Program-made: the position numbers and the translations under genes
Shown: piece after piece, positions 25,876 to 54,824 of the stretch
How the letters are laid out: each line of letters begins with the position of its first letter
Numbering within the stretch: position 1 is the stretch's first letter
Notes under the pieces: generated by a model
The model's input: only the letters and a program-made list of their open reading frames with translations
Database searches by the model: none
Told to the model about the DNA's origin: nothing
Origin: Escherichia coli
GTDB lineage: Bacteria > Pseudomonadota > Gammaproteobacteria > Enterobacterales > Enterobacteriaceae
NCBI RefSeq assembly: GCF_017348835.2
Contig: NZ_CP071375.1
Reading direction: 5' to 3' (one strand)
Length of the DNA: 64,000 nucleotides

Positions 25876-25895
25876 ACACATTAAATAATAAATAT

Positions 25896-25919
25896 CCTCC
25901 GGCATAGCCGGAGGTTTTT
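25896..25919 (+). terminator. pgm intrinsic terminator
   Basis: Hairpin ctccggc-ata-gccggag followed by a T5 run, 20 bp after the pgm stop. Confidence 0.65.
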
Positions 25920-26600
25920 CAAATGCGCCTATAAGGCTCTCTTACCAGCCGCGCCCTAACAGGCGCACACGATCTGACATTTGCATCCAACTTCGTTACT
26001 TACGGCCCGTAAACGGGCTGCCCGGATAGGGAATCGATAACTGCTCTACCATTTTATCCTCTTCAAGCTGGTGCTTTATGTAATCCTGTATCTTCGCCGT
26101 GTTCTTACCCACTGTATCGACGTAGTACCCTCTGCACCAGAACTCCCTGTTCCTGTATTTGAATTTCAAATCACCAAACTGCTCGTAAAGCATCAGACTG
26201 CTTTTCCCTTCCAGATATCCCATAAAGCCGGATACGCTCATTTTGGGCGGGATCTCCACAAGCATATGGATATGATCTGCACAGCATTCAGCTTCCAGAA
26301 TCCGTACACTTTTCCACTCACACAGCTTTCTCAAAATACTGCCTATTGCTCTACGCTTCTCTCTGTAGAACACCTGTCTTCGATATTTTGGCGCAAAAAC
26401 TATGTGATATTTACAGTTCCATCGGGTGTGCGCTAAGCTCTTTTCGTTCCCCATTGGGACCCCCTTTTGATTTCTTGTTTGACACTTGCAGTTGCCAGAC
26501 CGCAAGGTGTTTTAACAAATCAAAAGGGGTTTTAATAACTGGCTCAAAGCTGAAAGCTTTCCGGAACCCCCAGCCTAGCTGGGGGTTTTCTGTGCACAAG
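25920..26600 (-). mobile_element. IS200 insertion sequence (IS200/IS605 family); ends approximate
   Basis: Contains a 152-aa HuH tyrosine transposase and the characteristic IS200 5' leader hairpins; boundaries estimated to about +/-30 bp from the flanking pgm and potE terminators. Confidence 0.8.
25996..26454 (-). CDS. tnpA: IS200 transposase TnpA (HuH Y1 transposase)
   Basis: 152 aa from ATG 26454 (MGNEKSLAHTRWNCKYHIVFAPKYRR...) with HuH motif HIHML and catalytic Tyr in RGYYVDTVG; near-identical to the Salmonella IS200 TnpA from memory. Confidence 0.9.
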   Translation of the reverse strand: MGNEKSLAHTRWNCKYHIVFAPKYRRQVFYREKRRAIGSILRKLCEWKSVRILEAECCADHIHMLVEIPPKMSVSGFMGYLEGKSSLMLYEQFGDLKFKYRNREFWCRGYYVDTVGKNTAKIQDYIKHQLEEDKMVEQLSIPYPGSPFTGRK

Positions 26601-26631
26601 AAAAAGGGCGGTCGCAAGATCGCCCTTTTTT
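26600..26631 (-). terminator. potE-speF operon intrinsic terminator
   Basis: Hairpin gggcggtcgc-aa-gatcgccc with a U-run on the minus-strand transcript, 12 bp 3' of the potE stop. Confidence 0.7.
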
Positions 26632-30157: not shown

Positions 30158-30312
30158 TTTGTTCATCTCTTTATTTCAGGTAATAGCAGGTCCTCAATTT
30201 CTCAAAGGAGAAATCGATCACGCCGGAAAAAAAGCAAAGCTCCACCGCTGATAAATAAATCAGTAGTTTGCTTTTTGCAGATGCAATAACCCAGACCAGC
30301 CCGGTAACTGGC

Positions 30313-30488
30313 TATACTCGTCATACTTCAAGTTGCATGTGCTGCGTCTGCGTTCGCTCACCCCAGTCACTTACTCATGTAAGCTCCTGGGGATTCACTC
30401 GCTTGTCGCCTTCCTGCAACTCGAATTATTTAGAGTATATACTCGTCATACTTCAAGTTGCATATGCTGCGACTCGAATTATGTAGAG
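30313..30488. repeat. ERIC (enterobacterial repetitive intergenic consensus) element with a partial tandem duplication
   Basis: Core at 30355-30398 contains both ERIC PCR primer sequences (reverse complement of AAGTAAGTGACTGGGGTGAGCG, then ATGTAAGCTCCTGGGGATTCAC); full palindromic unit about 30313-30440; the left arm (30313-30346) is repeated at 30438-30471 with one mismatch. Confidence 0.8.
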
Positions 30489-30592
30489 TTTAAAAGGGTT
30501 AGCAGTATATGAGCACCGAGGGATACAGGTATTAACCTGTAATGCTTAAAGTCAGGGAGACCTGTACGCTGGGGTGCCCTTTAGTCAGAAGA

Positions 30593-30697
30593 CTAGCGGG
30601 CATTAAAGAAATGAAAGTCAAAACTATTACGATGGGCAAACTTCATGATATGGGTTGTCCGCCTTATATGAGGCATTAAGCGGTTATTATTTTCCAT
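30593..30697 (-). CDS. speFL: speFL ornithine-sensing arrest leader peptide
   Basis: 34-codon ORF MENNNRLMPHIRRTTHIMKFAHRNSFDFHFFNAR ending in TAG; matches the described SpeFL arrest peptide. Confidence 0.8.
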   Translation of the reverse strand: MENNNRLMPHIRRTTHIMKFAHRNSFDFHFFNAR

Positions 30698-30892
30698 TTA
30701 CCTTTACCTCTTGCTGTGTCAGTTGAAGGTAGAGTTATTCTATCCATGAAATGGCTATAATCTGTGAAGAAGATCAACAAAAAACGATCATACCCCAGAT
30801 AATAAATCATTAATTATGAATAGCGCCATATTAGACGCTGTTTTGTTATTTAAATGTTGTAATTTTGTGTTTTATATTTGCGTTAAGAAATT

Positions 30893-30926
30893 AAACCTGC
30901 CAAATAATAATATTTGGTGCAGGTTT
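30893..30926 (-). terminator. probable kdpE terminator hairpin
   Basis: Imperfect hairpin aaacctgccaaata / tatttggtgcaggttt about 45 bp 3' of the kdpE stop, U-rich tail on the transcript. Confidence 0.5.
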
Positions 30927-30971
30927 AATAATAAATTAATCACTATTTAAGCGAATTTATTGAATAACAAT

Positions 30972-36974: not shown

Positions 36975-38648
36975 TCAGGAGAGATATTCCGCCACCGGAC
37001 CAAGCGCTAGGGCAGGGATAAAGGTCAGTGCGCCAACCAGCAACACGGTGCCGATTAACAGGCCAACAAACAGCGGGCCGTGCGTTGGCAGCGTGCCGGA
37101 GCTGGCGGGTTGGCTCTTTTTACTCACCAGCGAACCGGCAATTGCCATCACCGGGATAATCACCCCGAAGCGACCGACAAACATGCAGAACGCCAGTAAA
37201 CAGTTCCAGAACGGAGAGTTGGCGCTTAATCCGGCAAAGGCGCTGCCGTTGTTGTTAGCGGCGGATGACACGGCGTACAGCACTTCGCTAAAACCATGCG
37301 GGCCAGGGTTGAGCATGGCGCTACGTCCGGCGTCGGTCATCATCGCCAGCGCCGCGCCCATCAGCACCAGTGTTGGAGTAACCAGAATCGCCAGTGCAGT
37401 CAATTTCATCTCACGTACGTCGATTTTTTTACCCAGATATTCCGGTGTACGACCAATCATCAGCCCGGCAATAAACACCGCCAGCAGGACAAACAGCATC
37501 ATGCCGTAAAGACCAGAACCGACACCGCCGAATACCACTTCACCAATTTGCATCAGCCACATCGGCACCATGCCACCGAGAGCGGTAAACGAATCATGCA
37601 TCGCAATCACCGCGCCACAGGAAGCCGCCGTAGTCACGACCGCAAACAGGCTACTGACCAGCACGCCGAAACGGCTCTCTTTACCTTCCATATTGATGCT
37701 GCTGTCCGCGCCCAGTGCCAGCAGATGCGGATTACCCTGAACTTCTGCCCACATCACCACGCCTACGCAGATGACAAAAATCACTGACATCGCCCACAGC
37801 AACATGCGCCCCTGGCGGCGATCGCCCGTCACTTCACCAAAGGCAAAGCACAGCGCTGTTGGGATCAAGAAGATCGCCAGCATCTGCACGAAGTTGGTCA
37901 GTGCGGTTGGGTTTTCAAACGGATGCGACGAGTTGGCATTAAAGAAGCCACCGCCGTTAGTACCGAGCATCTTGATCGCTTCCTGAGAAGCTACTGGCCC
38001 CATGGGTAACAGCTGTTGCGCTCCTTCAACGGTATTCACTGCCTGATAGGGCAGAAAGTTTTGCAGCGCACCTTGTTGAATAAAAAACAGTGCGATCAAC
38101 AACGCCACAGGGACTAGCACCCATAACGTGATGCGTAGCAGATCGACCCAGGCATTCCCGAGTGTGCTCATGCTCTGGCGAGTAAACGCACGGATGAGGG
38201 CAAAAATCACCGCAATCCCGCTGGCGGCAGAAAGAAAGTTTTGTACCGTTAAGCCCGCCATCTGGCTGAAATAGCTCAACGTGGTTTCACCGCTATAAGA
38301 TTGCCAGTTGGTATTGGTGACAAAGCTGACGGCGGTATTCAGCGCCAGATCCCACGACAGCCCCGGCAACTGCTGTGGATTAAGCGGCAGATAGTGCTGA
38401 CCGAGCAACATAAAAAAAAGCACCGCCAGCCCCAGCATGTTCAGGCCGAGAATGGCACAGAGATATTGCTTCCAGTTCATCTCATGGTCAGAGACGCCAG
38501 GTAAACGAAAGAGTACGCGTTCAACGCCCGCTGTACCGGGAAGAGATATGTCATTAATCAGCCGTGCCAGCCCGCTGCCTAAAGGGCGCGCCAGCACCAT
38601 TAACACCAGTAAAAACGTGGCGATCAGTAAGAACCCTTGCGCAGCCAT
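36975..38648 (-). CDS. kdpA: K+-transporting ATPase subunit A
   Basis: The ORF track gives 605 aa; the conserved N-terminus [14 protein letters not shown] starts at ATG 38648 (557 aa). Confidence 0.93.
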
Positions 38649-38737
38649 CAGAACGCCTCCGCATTGATCAGGGCATAAACCAGATAACCCAGTAATAAAA
38701 ACACCAGCAATACGCCGGCTATCACGCCTGCACTCAC
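38648..38737 (-). CDS. kdpF: K+-transporting ATPase subunit F (small membrane peptide)
   Basis: 29 codons (M)[28 protein letters not shown] from GTG 38737, with a GGAGG Shine-Dalgarno 6 nt upstream; its stop TGA overlaps the kdpA ATG. Confidence 0.8.
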
Positions 38738-38814
38738 AGTGCACCTCCAGTGGCCTAAAAGTGATACCGGAAGGGTAGAATTCTGGCTGCAAAGATTTCG
38801 CAAAAATCTGCGGG

Positions 38815-38840
38815 TGGGGTGTAAAAAAAGTATAAAAATG
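38815..38840 (-). promoter_or_regulatory. KdpE binding site of the kdpFABC promoter
   Basis: Minus-strand sequence CATTTTTATACTTTTTTTACACCCC with direct half-sites TTTATA and TTTACA, about 80 bp upstream of kdpF. Confidence 0.6.
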
Positions 38841-39049
38841 GCAAAAGCCATGATTTAACTAATGTTTAGTATTAATTTAACTTTTGTGTAACTTAATTAC
38901 AGGGTGAATGTAAATAAACCATCAATAAGCAAAAATAAGTGGTCGGATGAGTAGTAAAATTACACAAAAGGCGGTACTATTTTCATCAGATAAACAAATT
39001 CATTTTTCCGGTGCTATTCACCGGGTAGATACAAAAGGGGGAGAAAAGT

Positions 39050-39256
39050 ATGGAACTCTACAGAGAATATCCTGCATGGCTTATCTTTTTACGCCGTACT
39101 TATGCGGTTGCAGCGGGCGTTCTGGCGCTGCCTTTCATGCTTTTCTGGAAAGACCGCGCCCGCTTTTACAGCTACCTGCATCGCGTCTGGTCGAAAACCA
39201 GCGATAAACCGGTGTGGATGGATCAGGCCGAAAAGGCAACTGGTGATTTTTACTGA
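39050..39256 (+). CDS. ybfA: small uncharacterized protein YbfA
   Basis: 68-aa [36 protein letters not shown]... with a good Shine-Dalgarno; recognised as YbfA. Confidence 0.8.
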
Positions 39257-39280
39257 TTGCTGAGTTCTGAATACATTGAA

Positions 39281-39311
39281 AACCGCTAGTGGAAACGCTG
39301 GCGGTTTTTTT
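39281..39311 (+). terminator. probable ybfA intrinsic terminator
   Basis: Hairpin aaccgc...gcggtt followed by a T7 run. Confidence 0.55.
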
Positions 39312-39357
39312 CTTTTCGCCGTCTACACTTACTCCTGTAAACCGTTCAGGAGCAGTA

Positions 39358-39867
39358 ATGAATCAGCAACGATTTGATGACAGCACCCTAATCCGTATCT
39401 TCGCCCTTCATGAGTTACATCGACTGAAAGAACATGGCTTAACGCGCGGGGCGCTTCTCGATTATCACAGCCGCTATAAACTCGTCTTTCTGGCTCATTC
39501 CCAGCCGGAATACCGCAAACTTGGCCCGTTCGTGGCTGATATTCACCAGTGGCAAAATCTGGATGACTATTACAACCAGTACCGCCAACGCGTAGTTGTT
39601 TTGCTTTCTCACCCCGCCAACCGACGTGACCACACCAACGTTTTGATGCACGTTCAGGGTTATTTTCGCCCGCATATTGATTCCACAGAACGCCAGCAGC
39701 TGGCTGCGCTTATCGACAGTTATCGCCGTGGCGAGCAACCGCTTCTTGCGCCGCTGATGCGTATCAAACACTATATGGCGCTTTATCCTGACGCCTGGCT
39801 TTCAGGGCAGCGTTATTTCGAACTTTGGCCGCGTGTGATTAACTTGCGCCATTCAGGAGTTTTATGA
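39358..39867 (+). CDS. ybgA: DUF1722-family protein YbgA
   Basis: 169 aa from ATG 39358 (MNQQRFDDSTLIRIF) with an AGGAG Shine-Dalgarno; the ORF-track start at 39289 would read through the ybfA terminator. Confidence 0.85.
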   Translation: MNQQRFDDSTLIRIFALHELHRLKEHGLTRGALLDYHSRYKLVFLAHSQPEYRKLGPFVADIHQWQNLDDYYNQYRQRVVVLLSHPANRRDHTNVLMHVQGYFRPHIDSTERQQLAALIDSYRRGEQPLLAPLMRIKHYMALYPDAWLSGQRYFELWPRVINLRHSGVL

Positions 39868-41282
39868 CTACCCATCTGGTCTGGTTTCGCCAGGATTTAC
39901 GTCTGCATGATAATCTCGCGCTGGCTGCCGCCTGCCGCAATTCGTCTGCACGCGTGCTGGCGTTGTATATCGCTACACCACGCCAGTGGGCGGCGCATAA
40001 TATGTCGCCGCGTCAGGCTGAACTTATCAATGCTCAACTGAACGGGCTACAAATCGCGCTGGCGGAAAAAGGCATTCCTTTATTGTTCCGTGAAGTGGAT
40101 GACTTTGCCGCCAGCGTCGAAATAGTTAAACAGGTGTGCGCGGAAAACAGCGTTACTCATCTTTTTTATAACTATCAGTATGAGGTGAATGAGCGGGCGC
40201 GGGATGTGCAGGTTGAGAGAACGCTGCGTAACGTGGTGTGTGAAGGATTTGATGACAGCGTGATCCTGCCGCCTGGCGCGGTGATGACCGGCAATCATGA
40301 GATGTACAAAGTCTTTACGCCTTTTCAAAATGCCTGGCTGAAACGGCTGCGGGAAGGGATGCCGGAGTGCGTCGCTGCACCAAAAGTTCGTAGTAGCGGA
40401 TCGATAAAGCCCGCGCCATCAATTACGCTGAATTATCCTCGTCAGTCTTTCGATACTGCGCATTTTCCGATGGAAGAAAAAGCGGCGATTGCGCAATTAC
40501 GCCAGTTTTGCCAGAACGGTGCCGGAGAATATGAGCAACAACGAGATTTTCCGGCAGTTGAAGGCACCAGCCGTTTGTCCGCCAGCCTGGCAACGGGCGG
40601 GTTATCACCTCGCCAGTGTTTGCATCGCCTGTTGGCGGAACAGCCGCAGGCGCTGGACGGTGGGGCCGGTAGTGTCTGGCTTAGTGAGCTGATCTGGCGC
40701 GAGTTCTACCGTCATCTGATGACGTATTACCCCTCGTTGTGTAAACATCGTCCATTTATTGCCTGGACGGATCGTGTGCAGTGGCAAAGCAATCCCGCCC
40801 ATTTAAAGGCCTGGCAGAAAGGCAAAACGGGATACCCGATTGTTGATGCCGCTATGCGTCAGCTTAACAGCACTGGCTGGATGCATAACCGGCTACGGAT
40901 GATTACAGCCAGTTTTCTGGTGAAAGATTTGTTGATCGACTGGCGCGAAGGCGAGCGATATTTCATGTCGCAGCTGATTGATGGTGATTTGGCAGCCAAT
41001 AACGGTGGCTGGCAGTGGGCGGCTTCTACGGGTACTGATGCAGCGCCGTATTTTCGTATTTTCAACCCGACAACCCAGGGCGAGAAATTTGACCGCGAAG
41101 GCGAGTTTATCCGCCAGTGGCTACCGGAACTACGCAATGTACCGGGGAAATCGGTGCATGAGCCGTGGAAGTGGGCGCAGAAAGCAGGTGTGAAGCTGGA
41201 TTATCCGCAACCGATAGTCGAGCACAAAGAGGCGAGAGTACAAACGTTGGCAGCGTATGAGGCGGCGCGGAAGGGGAAATAA
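39864..41282 (+). CDS. phr: deoxyribodipyrimidine photolyase
   Basis: 472-aa ORF with photolyase N-terminal and FAD-binding domains; ATGA overlap with ybgA. Confidence 0.95.
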   Translation: MTTHLVWFRQDLRLHDNLALAAACRNSSARVLALYIATPRQWAAHNMSPRQAELINAQLNGLQIALAEKGIPLLFREVDDFAASVEIVKQVCAENSVTHLFYNYQYEVNERARDVQVERTLRNVVCEGFDDSVILPPGAVMTGNHEMYKVFTPFQNAWLKRLREGMPECVAAPKVRSSGSIKPAPSITLNYPRQSFDTAHFPMEEKAAIAQLRQFCQNGAGEYEQQRDFPAVEGTSRLSASLATGGLSPRQCLHRLLAEQPQALDGGAGSVWLSELIWREFYRHLMTYYPSLCKHRPFIAWTDRVQWQSNPAHLKAWQKGKTGYPIVDAAMRQLNSTGWMHNRLRMITASFLVKDLLIDWREGERYFMSQLIDGDLAANNGGWQWAASTGTDAAPYFRIFNPTTQGEKFDREGEFIRQWLPELRNVPGKSVHEPWKWAQKAGVKLDYPQPIVEHKEARVQTLAAYEAARKGK

Positions 41283-47083: not shown

Positions 47084-48126
47084 GCCGTACGTTTCGGCGC
47101 ATAGGTTGAAATAAACCGCGCAATGGCAGGCCCTGTCAGCAAAATACTGAACAGGCGCAGGGTTTGCATCGCCATAATGAGCGCCATATCGGCATTGCTC
47201 CCTGCGGCGATGACCGCCACGGTATCAAGCCCGCCGGGGCTGGTGGCGAGGTAGGCAGTCATAAAATCAATGTGCATAAACCGGGTCAGTCCCCACGCCA
47301 TACCCGCACAAATAGCCAGCAGAGCAAAAATCGACAGCAGGATTTGTGGTAGCGGGCGTAGTGCCCGCAGTAAGATTTGTTTATCGAAACCAAGACCAAT
47401 CCGCCAGCCAATTGCCATATACGCCATCGCCAGCAGCCATTCCGGTAGTTCGATGGTGATGAGCTGACCAGACTGGAGCACTGCGCCCGCCAGCATCGGG
47501 ATGAGCATCGTGCCGGAAGGAAGACGCAGCAGGCATCCCACTGTACCGGCAACGACCGCGAGCAAAATAGTAAGCAGGAGATTAATGCTCACTGGCGGGA
47601 ACCAGACGATATGCTGGTTAACCGCTTCAGCGTTATCACCCAGCATCATGCGAGTGACCAGAACAGCGGCCCCCGCGACGAACAGCACTCGCAGATATTG
47701 CATAAACGCCACCAGGCGAATATCTGCGCCGTAATCTTGCGCCATAGCGACCATTGCCGCCGCGCCGCCAGGAGAGGAACCCCAGGCACCGGTATTTCCA
47801 GGCAATGAGCTATAGCGCACCAATAACCAACCCACGATGGCGCTGGAAAGCAGCGTTACCAGTAAAATTGCAAGCACGATCGGCCAGTTGACGGCCAGGG
47901 TGGTGAGAATCGAACCAGTGAGGTTTTGCGCAATCATGCAGCCAAGAATGGCCTGCGCGGCGAGAAAAGCGGAGCGGGGGAGTTGCAGGATAACCCCGCG
48001 CATACTGAAGATGATCCCGGCGATCATCGGCCCAAGTAATAATGCCGCCGGGAGATGTACCGCGAGGAAACCAATAGAAAGGAGAAGTGATAGCACACAT
48101 AACATTCCCCACTGCAAAACTGGCAT
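47080..48126 (-). CDS. abrB: AbrB-family putative membrane transporter / regulator
   Basis: Polytopic membrane protein recognised as AbrB/YbgN; two candidate ATGs (48141 and 48126), the second chosen to match the recalled 348-aa length. Confidence 0.85.
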
Positions 48127-48274
48127 CCTTTGCTCCCTCATTATTTACTCTTTGGTGTATCGATACAGCATAAAGAATGCCGGGCATGGAAAAAATAACG
48201 GTAATCAATAAAAGCCGGAAAATTGGCAATTAACCGAAGAAGCCCTCTCCGGCTGGAAAGGGCAATAGGCTAAA

Positions 48275-49336
48275 TCAGTTGTAGTTAATTTTGAAAAGTA
48301 CCACTGTATCAAAGGGACCAACGTCGATGGGCGTACCCGGCGTGGATGACAATTCTGCCGTGTAGGTTTTTTCATACACTAACAGGTCGCTGGTAAAATC
48401 GGCATACTCACTGTATTTGTTGAAAGTATAGGGTGAGGCATTTTCATCCAACAATCGAAGCTTCAGGCCATTGCCAATGAGCAGTGATTTATCTTCGTCG
48501 ATAAGGGTTTCATCGGTATAAAACGAAGAGCTGACTTTAAAACCGTCGGTACACTGGTCGTTTTGTGATTTGGTTGTAGTTATTTTAAATTGCTGCGACA
48601 TCGTATGGCGACGAATATCCAGCACGTTAAATCGGCCAAAATCAACGACCTGGGTTTCAGGTGAGATAGCAAAGTTGACGCTGCAATCCAGCACGCGGAT
48701 ATTTTCCAGACCGGTAATGTGATATTTCAGATTCTTCGCGGTAGGGTCTTCGTTCACGCTGCCTGCGCCATCAAACTGTACGACGATGTAATCGCTGAGT
48801 TTGCTCTGATAATCATGGGGCGGCATGGCGCGAACTTTAACGTAAAGCCGCATACGCGCCACAAACGTCCGCGATTTGTGCATAACGGTTGGATCGCCGG
48901 AGCAAAGTTTATTTTGCCAGCCCATCGCAATGATCTGCTCCGGGGTGTAAATATCAATATTCTTACTGTCGATGCACTGATTCGTGTCGATGCGGCTTTT
49001 CCCAAGGCTTGCGTCATAGTCCACGCCTTCATAGGTTACGCCCAATTGATAATAGGGATCCTGAATACCGGGGTAAGGGTTTACCCAGGCGTAGACGTGC
49101 TCGCTTTCAAAATTACCGTTTGTGTTGTTGTCACAGTAGACCGGAATTTTTATATCGTCAGATTCCCAGATTTTATCGCCGGGTTTGGAATTGGCCGGAA
49201 CGGCGAAGGGCATAATAGCTTCCGATTTTTCTACAGCGCCGTTTGCGGTACCAAAATAGCAGTTCAGCGCCAGCGCCGCTTTTAGCGGCAAAAAAATCAG
49301 ACAGATGGCGAGCAACACGCCTTTGGCGAATCTCAT
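48275..49336 (-). CDS. ybgO: putative fimbrial adhesin (tip protein) of the ybg chaperone-usher operon
   Basis: 353-aa secreted protein with a signal peptide; last gene of the ybgD-Q-P-O operon. Confidence 0.8.
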
Positions 49337-50064
49337 TTTTTATTCTCCACCGGCTGCAGGCGGCATTGCCGCTGGCAGGAGAGCGTGTTCATACGCAATG
49401 CGCCGTAGTCGTCCATGTAGCCAAGATAAAACTGCTTGCCGCTATAGCTGCCCGTGCTGGTGGTGACCGAACTGAACGGTGCGACCATCGTGCTTTTAAA
49501 GCCAGGCAGCACGCCTTTCTCATCCCGCCCAAGATAGGCAATAGTCAGATAGTATCCGGTCGGGTTTTTCAGGGTAAGCTGGTTATTCTGCTGGCTAACC
49601 TGTAGCTGTTGCTCAACATGATCGCCCATTTTTTTGCGTAATGCGGCGGGTCGCCAGAATAGCTTAATGCGACTTTGGACGGCGACTTGCAGGATCGCAT
49701 GGCCCTCGCTGCCTTCCGGGACAGGCGGAATTTCACGCAGGTTATAGTAAAAGAGAGATTCGCGATCGGTGGGTAATTTCGCGGTGGCGGCTTGTTTCAT
49801 GATCCGAACCTGCGAAGCCGCTTTTGGCTCCAGTCGCTGGATAGGCGGCAGGGCGACGAGAAATTCATCGCTTTTCTCTCCCTTTTCATTTTCTATCCAT
49901 GAATAGGCGAGGTAGGGGAGTTTATCGCTGCGGTTTTCCACGCGCAGGCTGGTTGCTTTATCTTTGCTATTAAAGATGATGCGCGTGCGGTCAGGCTGCA
50001 CTGCGCCGTGGCTGCACATACTGGCAACCAGAAGAATCAAAGGGAATCCTTTAACAAATGTCAT
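49333..50064 (-). CDS. ybgP: periplasmic fimbrial chaperone (PapD-like)
   Basis: 243-aa ORF with signal peptide and PapD-like fold motifs; 4-nt overlap with ybgO. Confidence 0.85.
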
Positions 50065-50078
50065 CGTCTTTTCCTTAA

Positions 50079-52538
50079 TTAATGACAGGGTAAAATCAGG
50101 CGCTTAGTCACATCTTCCAGATGTTCCGGCAGATGAATGGCACACGTTTTCTGGTCGCCCCAGTGCACGGTAAATTGTTGATTTTCATCGACCCCACTCA
50201 GCCATGCGTGACCGTTTTCGCCAACCATCCCGACGCTGACACCGCCTTCAGCCTGGCGAACATCGGCACCGAGCGGCGGGAAATGCCCGTTAGCATCGCT
50301 GATAATGACGTTGAGATCTTTCCCGGCGCGGGACGCCAGCGATTTAAAGCCGATGGCGCCTTCGGTCCAGGTTTCTTTCACCACGTTTTCGGAAACGGTA
50401 ACGCCGTCAGGCAAGTCGTTCATATTGACCGCCACCGTCGTAGGCTGGTAGCTGGAAACAAACGGTACCACGGCAATACCAAAGCGGTTGGTGTAGTCAA
50501 TATTGCCCTGAATCGGAATATCGCCCACGCCGTCGGTGCTGACCATCAGGCGTGGTTCATTGGTGGAACTGCGGCGATGGAATGCCGCGCCATGTTGAGT
50601 CGCGGTAAACGAGCCGCTCCAACTGGCACTGGCGGAAGTGTAATCATTGGCGGCATAGGTTCCGGTCAGATCCCATTCCCCCGCCGAACTGAGGTGTTGG
50701 TAATTGCCGCTGACCTGCGCACCGTTATCCGGGCGATCGGATTGTATTCCAGCCGACATTCCCCAACTGTTTCGTTCATCCAGGGTATCGTTCCACGACA
50801 TGCGGTGGGTGGTACTATTACTGTTGTTCTGCATGTCATAACCCAGTCGACCACTTTCCCCAATCGGTAAGGAGATCGAAAAGTAAATCTGGTTGTCGCG
50901 ATCTTTATCTTCATAATGGGTGGTGTTGAACGAGGTCGAGACAGAAATATCTTTCCAGTCGCCAATGTCGACGTTAAAACCGGCGGTAATGTTGGCCGTG
51001 GTGGAGGTATCCGCATTCCACCAGCTCTGATGCAGGATGTTGGCGTAGAGATTAAGATTCAGCGGAGTAATAGGCTGACCGAAGGAGAGGCTGATGGTTT
51101 GCTTTTCATCCTGCGCGTCGGCGTCATTGTATTTGTGATCAATGTAGTTAGCGTAGCTGTGAAAATGGCGATCGGAGAAGCGATAGGCTGCCAATGAGAT
51201 GGTGCTGTTGGTCGCATCAACCTGTTTGCTGTAGTTAAAGCGGTAGCTGTAACCCTGCTCATCCTGTTGAGTATCAAAATGGCTGTCGGCCCAGGTCACG
51301 TCAAACGACAGCGCCCCCAGCCAGAGCATATTTTGCCCAATACCCAGCGCGCCGGAACGATAGTCATCGCCTGCGAGAAGCATGCCGCCATATAGTGAAG
51401 TGTTGGAGAGCATCCCCCAGGAGACTTCATGGCTAATGAAGGTTTCATCCTCGGTGTGGTGCGACATAGAGGAACGCGGGCGACCGGCAGCCAGTTTATA
51501 GCGCACCTGGCCCTGACGCGTCAGGAACGGGGTAGAGGCCGCTGAAACCTGGAAGTTATTCACCCGTCCATCTTCTTCGCTCACTTTGACATCCAGTGTA
51601 CCTTGCACTGACTGATTCAGGTCATCAATAATAAATGGGCCTGGCGGAACTTTTTTCTGGTAAATCACGCGACCAGAATGGCTTATCGTGACCGTGGCGT
51701 TAGTCTGTGCGATGCCGCTGATTTGCGGCGCGTAGCCGCGTAACTCCCAGGGGAGCATTCGATCGTCGCTGGCTAACGCCGCACCGGTATAGGAGAAACC
51801 ATCAAAAATGTTAGAGCTAAAATCGGTTTCGCCCAGGGTTAATCGGGAACCTATTTGCGGTAACGGGCGGAACAGGTAGGTCCGTGAAATCGCCCCGGAT
51901 TGTTCACGGTTGTCGCCGCTATCGGACTGGCTAAGCTGATAATCGCTGCGCAGACGCCATGCCCCGGCGTTGAGGCCCGTGGTGCCATAGGCGTTCAGGT
52001 TGTTGCTGCTGCTGCCGCTTTGTGGGCGATAAGTGCTGGCAAACAGGTTGTAATCCATCAGGAAGCCAGGAATACCGTTATTCCACGTTGAGGGTGGCGT
52101 CCAGTTTTCTGAATGCCACGCCAGCCATGCCTGCGGGATTGTAATATTGAGCTGTTGATTTGCCTGATCGAAAGTAAAGATGATTTCAGGGAAGACACTA
52201 AAATCGACACATTCTTTTATTGCCGGTAATTTTTTACGAAAGTCAGATTTAAGTCCGAAGAGTTCGATCAGCGATTCATTGATACAAGGAATAATTTTAT
52301 CGCCAGATTTTTGCCAGCGAATTTGTTGCCCATTACTGATTTTATTATTATTAACCGTAACACTAACAAAATAATCGCCGGGAGCTACGACGCCTTTTTG
52401 ATTGAGCAACGAAATATCAACGCTATCCCGAATCGACTTATCGAGAACGTTAAGGTTAAATTCAGCTGCCAGCGCAGGAGGGGTTACCATTGCCAGACAG
52501 GAAAGAACAGAGAGTCGATAAATATTCACGGCATCCAT
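50079..52538 (-). CDS. ybgQ: outer-membrane fimbrial usher
   Basis: 819-aa ORF recognised as the usher YbgQ; the exact start among nearby ATGs is not resolved. Confidence 0.85.
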   Translation of the reverse strand: MDAVNIYRLSVLSCLAMVTPPALAAEFNLNVLDKSIRDSVDISLLNQKGVVAPGDYFVSVTVNNNKISNGQQIRWQKSGDKIIPCINESLIELFGLKSDFRKKLPAIKECVDFSVFPEIIFTFDQANQQLNITIPQAWLAWHSENWTPPSTWNNGIPGFLMDYNLFASTYRPQSGSSSNNLNAYGTTGLNAGAWRLRSDYQLSQSDSGDNREQSGAISRTYLFRPLPQIGSRLTLGETDFSSNIFDGFSYTGAALASDDRMLPWELRGYAPQISGIAQTNATVTISHSGRVIYQKKVPPGPFIIDDLNQSVQGTLDVKVSEEDGRVNNFQVSAASTPFLTRQGQVRYKLAAGRPRSSMSHHTEDETFISHEVSWGMLSNTSLYGGMLLAGDDYRSGALGIGQNMLWLGALSFDVTWADSHFDTQQDEQGYSYRFNYSKQVDATNSTISLAAYRFSDRHFHSYANYIDHKYNDADAQDEKQTISLSFGQPITPLNLNLYANILHQSWWNADTSTTANITAGFNVDIGDWKDISVSTSFNTTHYEDKDRDNQIYFSISLPIGESGRLGYDMQNNSNSTTHRMSWNDTLDERNSWGMSAGIQSDRPDNGAQVSGNYQHLSSAGEWDLTGTYAANDYTSASASWSGSFTATQHGAAFHRRSSTNEPRLMVSTDGVGDIPIQGNIDYTNRFGIAVVPFVSSYQPTTVAVNMNDLPDGVTVSENVVKETWTEGAIGFKSLASRAGKDLNVIISDANGHFPPLGADVRQAEGGVSVGMVGENGHAWLSGVDENQQFTVHWGDQKTCAIHLPEHLEDVTKRLILPCH

Positions 52539-52587
52539 ACCTGAACAATATTCGCAAAAGGCGGCTAATCAGCCGCCTTAAAAAGGA

Positions 52588-53154
52588 TTATTGGTAATCC
52601 AGAACGTAAGTTGCGTTAGCAGTAACGGCCCCCGCGGTAACCGAAACTGCGTTATCCATCTGTTCCATCCAGGCAAAGAAGTTTAACGTTTGTTCTGTTG
52701 AACTTGCCAATAAGTCAATTGTTGGCGCTTCTGTTCCCAATACAACAAATGATTCATCTTTGTTCATGAGACGTACGCCAACGCCGGTAGCCTCGCCAGC
52801 ACTGATGTTACTAAGGAGCGGCGTTGCACCTGTCGTTTTAGCTGTGCTGTCGAAGGTCACGCCTACCTTTGAGACCACGCCACCGTTGCCATCATCCCAG
52901 CCTGCAATATCACAGTTGATTAAGCGAATATTGACAGGTTTTTTCTCGCTATGATGTTCTCGATTTATGTGGGATGTGGTTACTTCACCCAAGTCAATGT
53001 TCATATCAAGGTCATTAGGGTGAATTTCACAAGGTGCTTCAATAACTTCACCTTTAAAGTGGATTTCACCAGATCCTTCATCTGCAGCAAAAACAGGTGA
53101 AGCGAATAGTAGAGATATGGCCAGGGCGGCCAGTGTTTTTTGTCCTTTAAACAT
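52588..53154 (-). CDS. ybgD: fimbrial major subunit-like protein
   Basis: 188 aa from ATG 53154 (MFKGQKTLAALAISLLFASPVFA signal peptide); an alternative ATG at 53169 adds 5 residues. Confidence 0.85.
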   Translation of the reverse strand: MFKGQKTLAALAISLLFASPVFAADEGSGEIHFKGEVIEAPCEIHPNDLDMNIDLGEVTTSHINREHHSEKKPVNIRLINCDIAGWDDGNGGVVSKVGVTFDSTAKTTGATPLLSNISAGEATGVGVRLMNKDESFVVLGTEAPTIDLLASSTEQTLNFFAWMEQMDNAVSVTAGAVTANATYVLDYQ

Positions 53155-53480
53155 ACATGAATCCTTCATGGGCTATGATAAAGTATACTAATTATTCCGA
53201 CAGAATAGTGGTTTTTTGTTCATGTAATAATATTAATGTTGCTACATTATGTTTGAGAGTTTCTCAAAGCTCTCGAATCATAAATAAAGTGAATTAATCC
53301 TATTACGAGTTTATTTAATTGTGGGTGCTACCCAATGTATTCTACATCGATTGGCGGGATAACGGTGGTGGTGAATGAAAAATTAGGATTTTATTTAGTT
53401 GTCGGATATGTATTCTTGTAACGTGTAATTATGTATTTGTGTCCGATTACGTTTTTTTGTCGATAGACATAACTAACGAA

Positions 53481-53513
53481 CAAAAAAAAGCCCGCCAGAT
53501 ATTCAGGCGGGCT
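53481..53513 (-). terminator. gltA intrinsic terminator
   Basis: Hairpin agcccgcc...ggcgggct followed by U8 on the minus-strand transcript, about 30 bp 3' of the gltA stop. Confidence 0.75.
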
Positions 53514-53540
53514 AAACGATATATGGTTCAAATCAGATAA

Positions 53541-54824
53541 TTAATGTTTAACATCTGATTTAAAGTCTCGTTTTTCATAGCCGGTGTACAACTGGCGCGG
53601 ACGGGCGATCTTCATGCCGTCACTGTGCATTTCGCTCCAGTGAGCGATCCAGCCAACGGTACGGGCCATAGCGAAGATGACGGTGAACATGGAAGACGGA
53701 ATACCCATCGCTTTCAGGATGATACCAGAGTAGAAATCGACGTTCGGGTACAGTTTCTTCTCGATAAAGTACGGGTCGTTCAGCGCGATGTTTTCCAGCT
53801 CCATAGCCACTTCCAGCAGGTCATCTTTGGTGCCCAGCTCTTTCAGAACTTCATGGCAGGTTTCACGCATTACGGTGGCGCGCGGGTCGTAATTTTTGTA
53901 CACGCGGTGACCGAAGCCCATCAGGCGGAAAGAATCATTTTTATCTTTCGCACGACGAACAAATTCCGGAATGTGTTTAACGGAGCTGATTTCTTCCAGC
54001 ATTTTCAGCGCCGCTTCGTTAGCACCACCGTGCGCAGGTCCCCACAGTGAAGCAATACCTGCTGCGATACAGGCAAACGGGTTCGCACCCGAAGAGCCAG
54101 CGGTACGCACGGTGGAGGTAGAGGCGTTCTGTTCATGGTCAGCGTGCAGTATCAGAATACGGTCCATAGCACGTTCCAGAATCGGATTAACTTCATACGG
54201 TTCGCACGGCGTGGAGAACATCATATTCAGGAAGTTACCGGCATAGGAGAGATCGTTGCGCGGATAAACAAATGGCTGACCAATGGAATACTTGTAACAC
54301 ATCGCTGCCATGGTCGGCATTTTCGACAGCAGGCGGAACGCGGCAATTTCACGGTGACGAGGATTGTTAACATCCAGCGAGTCGTGATAGAACGCCGCCA
54401 GCGCGCCGGTAATACCACACATGACTGCCATTGGATGTGAGTCGCGACGGAAAGCGTGGAACAGACGGGTAATCTGCTCGTGGATCATGGTATGACGGGT
54501 CACCGTAGTTTTAAATTCGTCATACTGTTCCTGAGTCGGTTTTTCACCATTCAGCAGGATGTAACAAACTTCCAGGTAGTTAGAATCGGTCGCCAGCTGA
54601 TCGATCGGGAAACCGCGGTGCAGCAAAATACCTTCATCACCATCAATAAAAGTAATTTTAGATTCGCAGGATGCGGTTGAAGTGAAGCCTGGGTCAAAGG
54701 TGAACACACCTTTTGAACCGAGAGTACGAATATCAATAACATCTTGACCCAGCGTGCCTTTCAGCACATCCAGTTCAACAGCTGTGTCCCCGTTGAGGGT
54801 GAGTTTTGCTTTTGTATCAGCCAT
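53541..54824 (-). CDS. gltA: citrate synthase (type II)
   Basis: 427-aa [24 protein letters not shown]...; recognised as GltA. Confidence 0.97.

Follow-up and report, generated by a model that had tools for sequence, protein, structure and literature searches.

An unoccupied RhsC site between ybfA and ybgA in a non-K-12 strain of Escherichia coli

The ybfA-ybgA gap and the predicted signals in it

In the 64-kb stretch of E. coli DNA analyzed here (the window), a short gap separates kdpFABC-ybfA from ybgA-phr, in the orientation known from K-12, and the window was colinear with K-12 on both sides. Upstream, kdpA and kdpF are encoded on the minus strand, as is dtpD 3' of phr. According to the open reading frame (ORF) listing and the sequence, the spacing between ybfA and ybgA was 101 bp, and none of the RhsC element of K-12 was present between them. 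The features at the site are as follows.

39050-39256, plus strand: ybfA, the upstream neighbor; ORF of 68 aa, Pfam PF10725 (DUF2517, E = 2.9e-34), annotated as ybfA in strain PE164
39257-39357, plus strand: ybfA-ybgA gap, 101 bp; the unoccupied RhsC site, or rhs "position 5"
39278-39311, plus strand: predicted intrinsic terminator of ybfA; hairpin at 39278-39309 with a GAAA loop, run of 7 T's at 39305-39311
39311-39319, no strand: insertion point, 9 bp (TCTTTTCGC), in whose place K-12 has 729395-738962 (9,568 bp, the RhsC element); from BLAST break points and hand-aligned junctions of K-12, O157, and GN06156
39320-39332, plus strand: conserved box CGTCTACACTTAC; within it, TACACT (39324-39329) is a possible -10 element of ybgA-phr
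39348-39352, plus strand: ribosome-binding site AGGAG of ybgA, 5 nt before the ATG, read from the sequence
39358-39867, plus strand: ybgA, the downstream neighbor; 169 aa from an in-frame ATG at 39358 within the ORF 39289..39867, PF08349 (E = 2.3e-35)
39864-41282, plus strand: phr (phrB), photolyase gene; ORF supported by the K-12 and PE164 annotations, overlapping the ybgA stop

The preliminary description of this DNA had placed ybfA directly next to ybgA, with about 100 bp and a ybfA terminator between them. This was accurate, since the genes are 101 bp apart and both the hairpin and the T-run were found. YbgA consisted of DUF1722 only, according to Pfam, and the gene is annotated as ybgA in the near-identical strain PE164; ybgA and phr probably form one operon. 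In Citrobacter amalonaticus (L024, 10301-11254), the ybgA position is taken by a gene whose 317-aa product joins a 2-thiouracil desulfurase domain (PF04463) to DUF1722. Such a fusion is the outgroup form, and the E. coli YbgA of 169 aa retains the DUF1722 half alone; therefore, about 450 bp adjoining the Rhs site were lost in Escherichia.

The gap carries what is predicted to be a canonical intrinsic terminator closing ybfA, together with the ribosome-binding site of ybgA. The hairpin begins 22 nt past the ybfA stop and is directly followed by the T-run, as expected for a rho-independent terminator. A consensus terminator scan gave 14 pairs, 6 of them G-C. The folding energy of the gap was -34.7 kcal/mol (z = -3.77), none of 200 shuffled sequences was as stable, and the hairpin dominated the fold. 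At 39287 and 39290, in the 5' arm of the stem, the window has two C-to-T changes relative to K-12 that turn G-C pairs into G-U pairs, so that pairing is kept. The hairpin was conserved, with pair-preserving changes, in K-12 and in the outgroups. An Rfam scan of 38600-39600 (E of ≤1) gave a single match, to a chance microRNA far under the gathering score, and no known RNA family was found in the gap.

The T-run is followed by an 8-bp spacer, CTTTTCGC, and then by the box CGTCTACACTTAC. On the right side of all the cargoes examined (K-12, O157:H7, GN06156, and Salmonella enterica subsp. arizonae), this box was where conservation resumed, and it recurs 3' of the terminator in Citrobacter, Salmonella, Trabulsiella, Klebsiella, and others. 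TACACT may be the -10 element of a weak ybgA-phr promoter, because the box is conserved across genera amid varying surroundings and because Salmonella diarizonae, which has phr directly next and no ybgA in between, retains it as well. A consensus scan of 38800-39500 returned no sigma-70 site, and it is therefore conservation that argues for the -10 assignment. A literature search for promoter or transcription-start data on ybgA or phr gave nothing useful. If TACACT does serve as a -10 element, the Rhs element of K-12 would occupy the place of the -35 region.

Junctions of the Rhs element and other cargo at the gap

In K-12 MG1655 (NC_000913.3), the gene order is ybfA, rhsC, ybfB, ybfO, ybfC, ybfQ, ybfL, ybfD, ybgA, and phr, which agrees with the statement in the preliminary description that a large RhsC element with accessory genes separates ybfA from ybgA in that strain. 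The ybfA gene (729134-729340) and ybgA (739001-739510) are 9,660 bp apart there, and rhsC starts 243 bp after the ybfA stop. The corresponding distance from ybfA to ybgA in O157:H7, which is also occupied, is 7,880 bp. A different rearrangement was found in TC6, a derivative of K-12 EC600/C600 (L005, 25150-26022): a deletion that begins at a partial Rhs fragment 3' of rhsC-ybfB and reaches pxpB has removed ybgA, phr, dtpD, and ybgI.

A BLAST comparison of window positions 38000-41000 with the K-12 region gave two blocks with a clean break. The left block joined window positions 38000-39310 to K-12 sequence up to 729394, with 97.8% identity, and the right block joined 39320-41000 to K-12 sequence from 738963, with 96.6% identity. 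The left junction in K-12 reads GGCGGTTTTTT before the break and GTATCAGGAAG after it, and the right junction reads ...CATTTCTCAA followed by CGTCTACACTTAC. The break in homology coincided with both ends of the Rhs element, and the boundaries in O157:H7 were identical to those in K-12. Among the occupied genomes listed, the right-flank match begins at window position 39320.

No match to the K-12 and O157 island DNA was found in the whole 64-kb window by blastn, nor was any found there by tblastn with RhsC, YbfB, YbfC, and YbfD. At an occupied locus, one expects a large rhs core ORF whose C terminus is a toxin tip, with an immunity gene downstream; between ybfA and ybgA in the window, there were 101 bp only. 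Stretches at the right junction of the occupied alleles (ATTTCTCAA in K-12 and ATTTACCAT in O157) were considered as remnants of the window spacer CTTTTCGC, and they were rejected because the resemblance was at chance level. The site is thus a clean unoccupied allele without a remnant. The window has the same locus and the same flanking genes as the K-12 RhsC element (PMC2935791), and its break point corresponds to both ends of that element, but it lacks the rhs core, the immunity gene, the orphan tips, and the H-repeat/ISAs1 gene; it is the null allele rather than a member. The preliminary description had taken the site for the unoccupied version of an Rhs insertion site and had proposed alignment with K-12 and other E. 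coli genomes to find the exact junction and any remnant. With 9 bp in place of 9,568 bp in K-12, no island DNA or protein match, and a junction at 39311-39319 with zero remnant, that interpretation was borne out.

Other cargo was found at the same gap. The strain GN06156 (L004, 18305-20053) has a 1.75-kb islet, present in 171 genomes, that contains an ERIC repeat and shows no similarity to Rhs. Its genes are one with a weak SUKH-1 match under the Pfam cutoff, an ORF without a Pfam assignment, and one for a CdiI_3 immunity protein. GN06156 also lacks speF-potE between pgm and kdpE. In S. enterica subsp. arizonae (L062, 4297-8085), ybfA and phr are separated by a 3.7-kb island with a gene for an Hcp-Tle1 phospholipase fusion (PF05638 and PF09994) and two tandem DUF2931 genes; a direct repeat of about 33 bp, with the ybfA terminator inside it, borders this island. 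In Escherichia whittamii (L009, 9642-11441), a vgrG-like reading frame, and not rhs, directly follows a K-12-type left junction. This frame has an apparent frameshift near its start and reaches the contig end, so that the left (terminator) junction alone was seen. Like RhsC, the cargoes of GN06156 and S. arizonae are located between the T-run of the ybfA terminator and the TCTACAC box that precedes ybgA or phr. These type VI secretion effector/immunity islets of GN06156, S. arizonae, and E. whittamii differ from the window in cargo and junction sequences, the window being free of cargo.

At least three unrelated cargoes therefore directly follow the T-run. One is RhsC, with the E. whittamii vgrG at the same left junction; the others are the CdiI_3 islet and the Hcp-Tle1 island of S. 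arizonae. Except for the E. whittamii vgrG, the right boundary at the TCTACAC box was seen in all of these. Instead of marking a single old Rhs insertion, the stretch from the T-run to TACACT could be a landing pad used across genera for type VI secretion toxin and immunity cargo, in which case the window would represent a naive target site. The terminator repeat in S. arizonae could point to integration directed at the terminator hairpin. We consider such a landing pad rather improbable. The data are equally compatible with a simpler explanation, in which a stretch of only about 9 bp tolerates insertions because insertions elsewhere would break the predicted terminator or the predicted ybgA-phr promoter. 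The wider interest of the site is limited to this repeated arrival of type VI secretion toxin and immunity cargo at one tiny gap across genera.

Frequency of the empty site and its layout in outgroups

The state of the site was counted in 5,426 complete E. coli genomes, and a 1-kb probe across the site matched 5,424 of them. The counts are as follows.

Contiguous (empty) site, 1-kb probe: 1,310/5,424 (24%)
Contiguous (empty) site, 301-bp probe: 1,308
Window-type empty gap at full length, 101-bp gap probe: 165/5,426 (3%)
ExPEC-type empty gap: about 1,145, estimated as 1,310 minus 165
K-12-type ybfA-rhsC junction over ≥80% of the junction length, K-12 left-junction probe: 3,677/5,426 (68%)
1.75-kb islet without similarity to Rhs, GN06156 islet probe: 171
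Remainder by subtraction, outside the counted states: about 266

The preliminary description had allowed that K-12 and other strains might turn out to have the same direct adjacency, in which case its placement of RhsC would have been wrong. This was not what we found, as K-12 lacks the adjacency and the ybfA-rhsC junction was present in 3,677 of the 5,426 genomes. The window-type empty gap was scattered among strains, including PE164, F2_81, E. coli 042, O145:H28 strains, and isolates from pig, calf, and chicken. The other empty allele, found, for example, in UPEC132, MS8345, and APEC O2:K1:H4 and called ExPEC type here, resembles the window in its direct adjacency, in the order of terminator, spacer, and box, and in a gap of 100 to 101 bp. 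However, the 22 bp past the ybfA stop are unrelated in the two alleles (TTGCCAAACATGACGTTTAAAG versus TTGCTGAGTTCTGAATACATTG), the identity over 1 kb is about 93.7%, and the gap probe matches at positions 22-101 only, at about 94%. The ExPEC-type allele is about seven times more common than the window type (about 1,145 versus 165). The strains carrying it are presumably the pathogenic group without rhs expansion of Jackson et al.

The surroundings of ybfA were compared in other species by searching YbfA against one genome per GTDB species, which gave 80 loci. In nearly all genera other than Escherichia, phr or ybgA-phr starts 0.1 to 1.7 kb after ybfA, and no RhsC match was found outside Escherichia among the 80 loci. 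The order of terminator, T-run, spacer of about 10 bp, and (G/C)T(C/T)TACACTT was seen in Citrobacter, S. diarizonae, Trabulsiella, Klebsiella spallanzanii, and others. From the T-run through the spacer to TCTACAC, the sequences form a graded series, with TTTTTTTCTTTTCGCCGTCTACAC in the window, TTTTTTTGTTTTCGCCGTCTACAC in E. coli E69, TTTTTTTATGCGTCGACGTCTACAC in Citrobacter, and TTTTTTTATGCGCCAGGGTCTACAC in S. diarizonae. The occupied alleles do not have the 8-bp spacer. Based on the outgroup ybfA-(ybgA-)phr layout and on this order of elements, the empty state is therefore the ancestral layout and not a deletion scar. A deletion could not recreate the spacer, so the empty allele must go back to sequence that was never interrupted, whether by vertical descent or by recombination with a donor carrying such sequence.

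Within Escherichia, both states were found. In Escherichia albertii, rhs starts about 245 bp past the ybfA stop codon, a distance similar to that in K-12, and the K-12-type left junction is common to E. albertii, E. whittamii, and Escherichia sp. MOD1-EC7003. The site was empty in the Escherichia representatives E69 and SCPM-O-B-8794. Since the K-12-type junction occurs in other Escherichia species, the insertion is old and the polymorphism extends across species boundaries. The locus was described by Jackson et al. in 2009 as rhs "position 5," from kdpA to phr; these authors found one group of pathogenic strains without rhs expansion and inferred that the E. coli ancestor already had an rhs at position 5 (PMC2935791). 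In the E. coli W genome paper (PMC3032704), b0699 to b0706 are given as an Rhs region.

Origin of the empty allele and strain background

The gap at 39257-39357 very probably represents the empty state of an Rhs locus known to be polymorphic (RhsC, position 5), in its ancestral, never-interrupted arrangement. In this arrangement, the ybfA stop is followed by the predicted rho-independent terminator, the 8-bp spacer, the TACACT box with the ribosome-binding site, and ybgA-phr. In most E. coli strains, a composite Rhs element, composed of a toxin core gene, immunity genes, orphan tips, and an ISAs1/H-repeat transposase gene, would have been inserted between the T-run and the conserved box, and the lineage of the window simply has the gap without it. 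We infer that the empty allele of the window has come down from the ancestor unbroken. Alternatively, an ancestor of the window strain could have carried RhsC, and homologous recombination at kdp and ybgA-phr, on either side, could have exchanged the interval for that of a never-occupied donor, so that the sequence would still be of the ancestral type while its presence here would be a reversion. The K-12-type left junction in E. albertii, E. whittamii, and a cryptic Escherichia species speaks for an old insertion, and Jackson et al. (PMC2935791) put a position 5 rhs in the E. coli ancestor. Moreover, window-type empty alleles are rare (165/5,426) and occur in scattered strains, with O157:H7 occupied, and the flanks of the window are nearer to occupied K-12 (97.8% on the left and 96.6% on the right) than to the common ExPEC-type empty allele (about 93.7%). 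Given this old shared junction, the rhs attributed to the ancestor, and the closeness of the flanks to K-12, the lineage could therefore have regained an empty allele by recombination. However, divergence did not jump locally at the site, with 97 to 98% identity to K-12 on both sides over several kilobases, and no imported tract was visible at such resolution. Vertical retention of an old polymorphism fits the same data. Replacement from a donor thus appears unlikely, although it has an appreciable chance of being correct.

A precise deletion of Rhs in the lineage of the window, for example, by an excision tied to the ISAs1/H-repeat transposase, has in its favor that both elements, in K-12 and in O157, terminate on the right with a transposase gene of the ISAs1 family (H-repeat), located about 150 bp from ybgA. 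Rhs regions also do undergo deletion, as in the C600 derivative TC6, in which the region from the Rhs fragment to pxpB is gone. That deletion was imprecise, however, with neighboring genes removed as well. The K-12 element lacks flanking direct repeats through which it could be lost precisely, and a deletion cannot recreate the spacer CTTTTCGC, which is absent from the occupied alleles and matches the outgroup series; we regard a precise deletion as very improbable. The adjacency could also be false if a repeated Rhs element had been collapsed or skipped during assembly. Rhs cores are repeated 3 to 6 times per genome (median of 3 places per genome), and they often break short-read assemblies; three contigs, L009, L011, and L086, stop within the island or close to it. 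Nevertheless, the junction equals the ancestral sequence base for base, an identical or near-identical contiguous gap was found in 165 independent complete genomes (about 1,310 with the other empty allele), and a collapse would leave Rhs sequence, none of which is present. An assembly artifact can hardly be given any weight.

The presence or absence of Rhs at position 5 is an already known and common strain polymorphism, of which the window is an ordinary example. Rhs presence or absence at fixed chromosomal positions has long been described as a strain marker in E. coli, and the distribution of Rhs in the ECOR collection was reportedly treated in a 1995 paper in Genetics. What the comparison yields in practice is a junction defined to the base, frequencies in 5,426 genomes, evidence for the ancestral layout, and the placement of the window with PE164-like, non-K-12 strains.

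For this placement, the window was aligned with K-12, to which it is colinear over 689326-763643. Most 1-kb bins had 97 to 99.9% identity, and the divergence was 1 to 2.5% over most colinear blocks and about 2% overall. The identity to PE164 (NZ_CP114128.1, from a pig in China) was 99.998% over 41,001 bp, with one mismatch. Away from the Rhs site, the following differences from K-12 were found.

25893-26618, minus strand: IS200 copy between pgm and potE, in place of about 1.7 kb with ybfP-ybfG-ybfI in K-12; BLAST gap against K-12
25996-26454, minus strand: IS200 tnpA, 152 aa, Pfam PF01797 (Y1_Tnp, E = 4.1e-37); annotated as IS200/IS605 tnpA in PE164
30300-30969: speFL-kdpE intergenic region, about 220 bp longer than in K-12, with an ERIC/IRU-type repeat (GCTCACCCCAGTCACTTACTCATGTAAGCTCCTGGGGATTCAC) whose core is at about 30313-30474
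48000-53560: ybgO-ybgP-ybgQ-ybgD fimbrial operon, 74 to 82% identical to K-12, with flanking genes at 98 to 99%

The preliminary description had concluded from the Rhs site and the IS200 that the window came from a non-K-12 E. coli strain. This conclusion stood, and its better evidence is the divergence from K-12, the fimbrial operon with 74 to 82% identity, and the 99.998% identity to PE164, rather than the IS200. The IS200 itself was present as claimed: the copy at 25893-26618 has a Y1 HUH transposase of about 150 aa (PF01797) in an element of about 0.7 kb, and the same insertion is found in PE164. The 726-bp segment was absent from the matching position in the 84-kb syntenic K-12 region compared, and IS200 is not known from the K-12 genome as a whole. 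The ERIC/IRU-type repeat of the speFL-kdpE region was also found inside the GN06156 islet at the Rhs site. Judging from its sequence, the ybgOPQD operon of the window is a divergent allelic version of the K-12 operon. The YbgO protein is the same as that of O157:H7 (WP_001209721.1).
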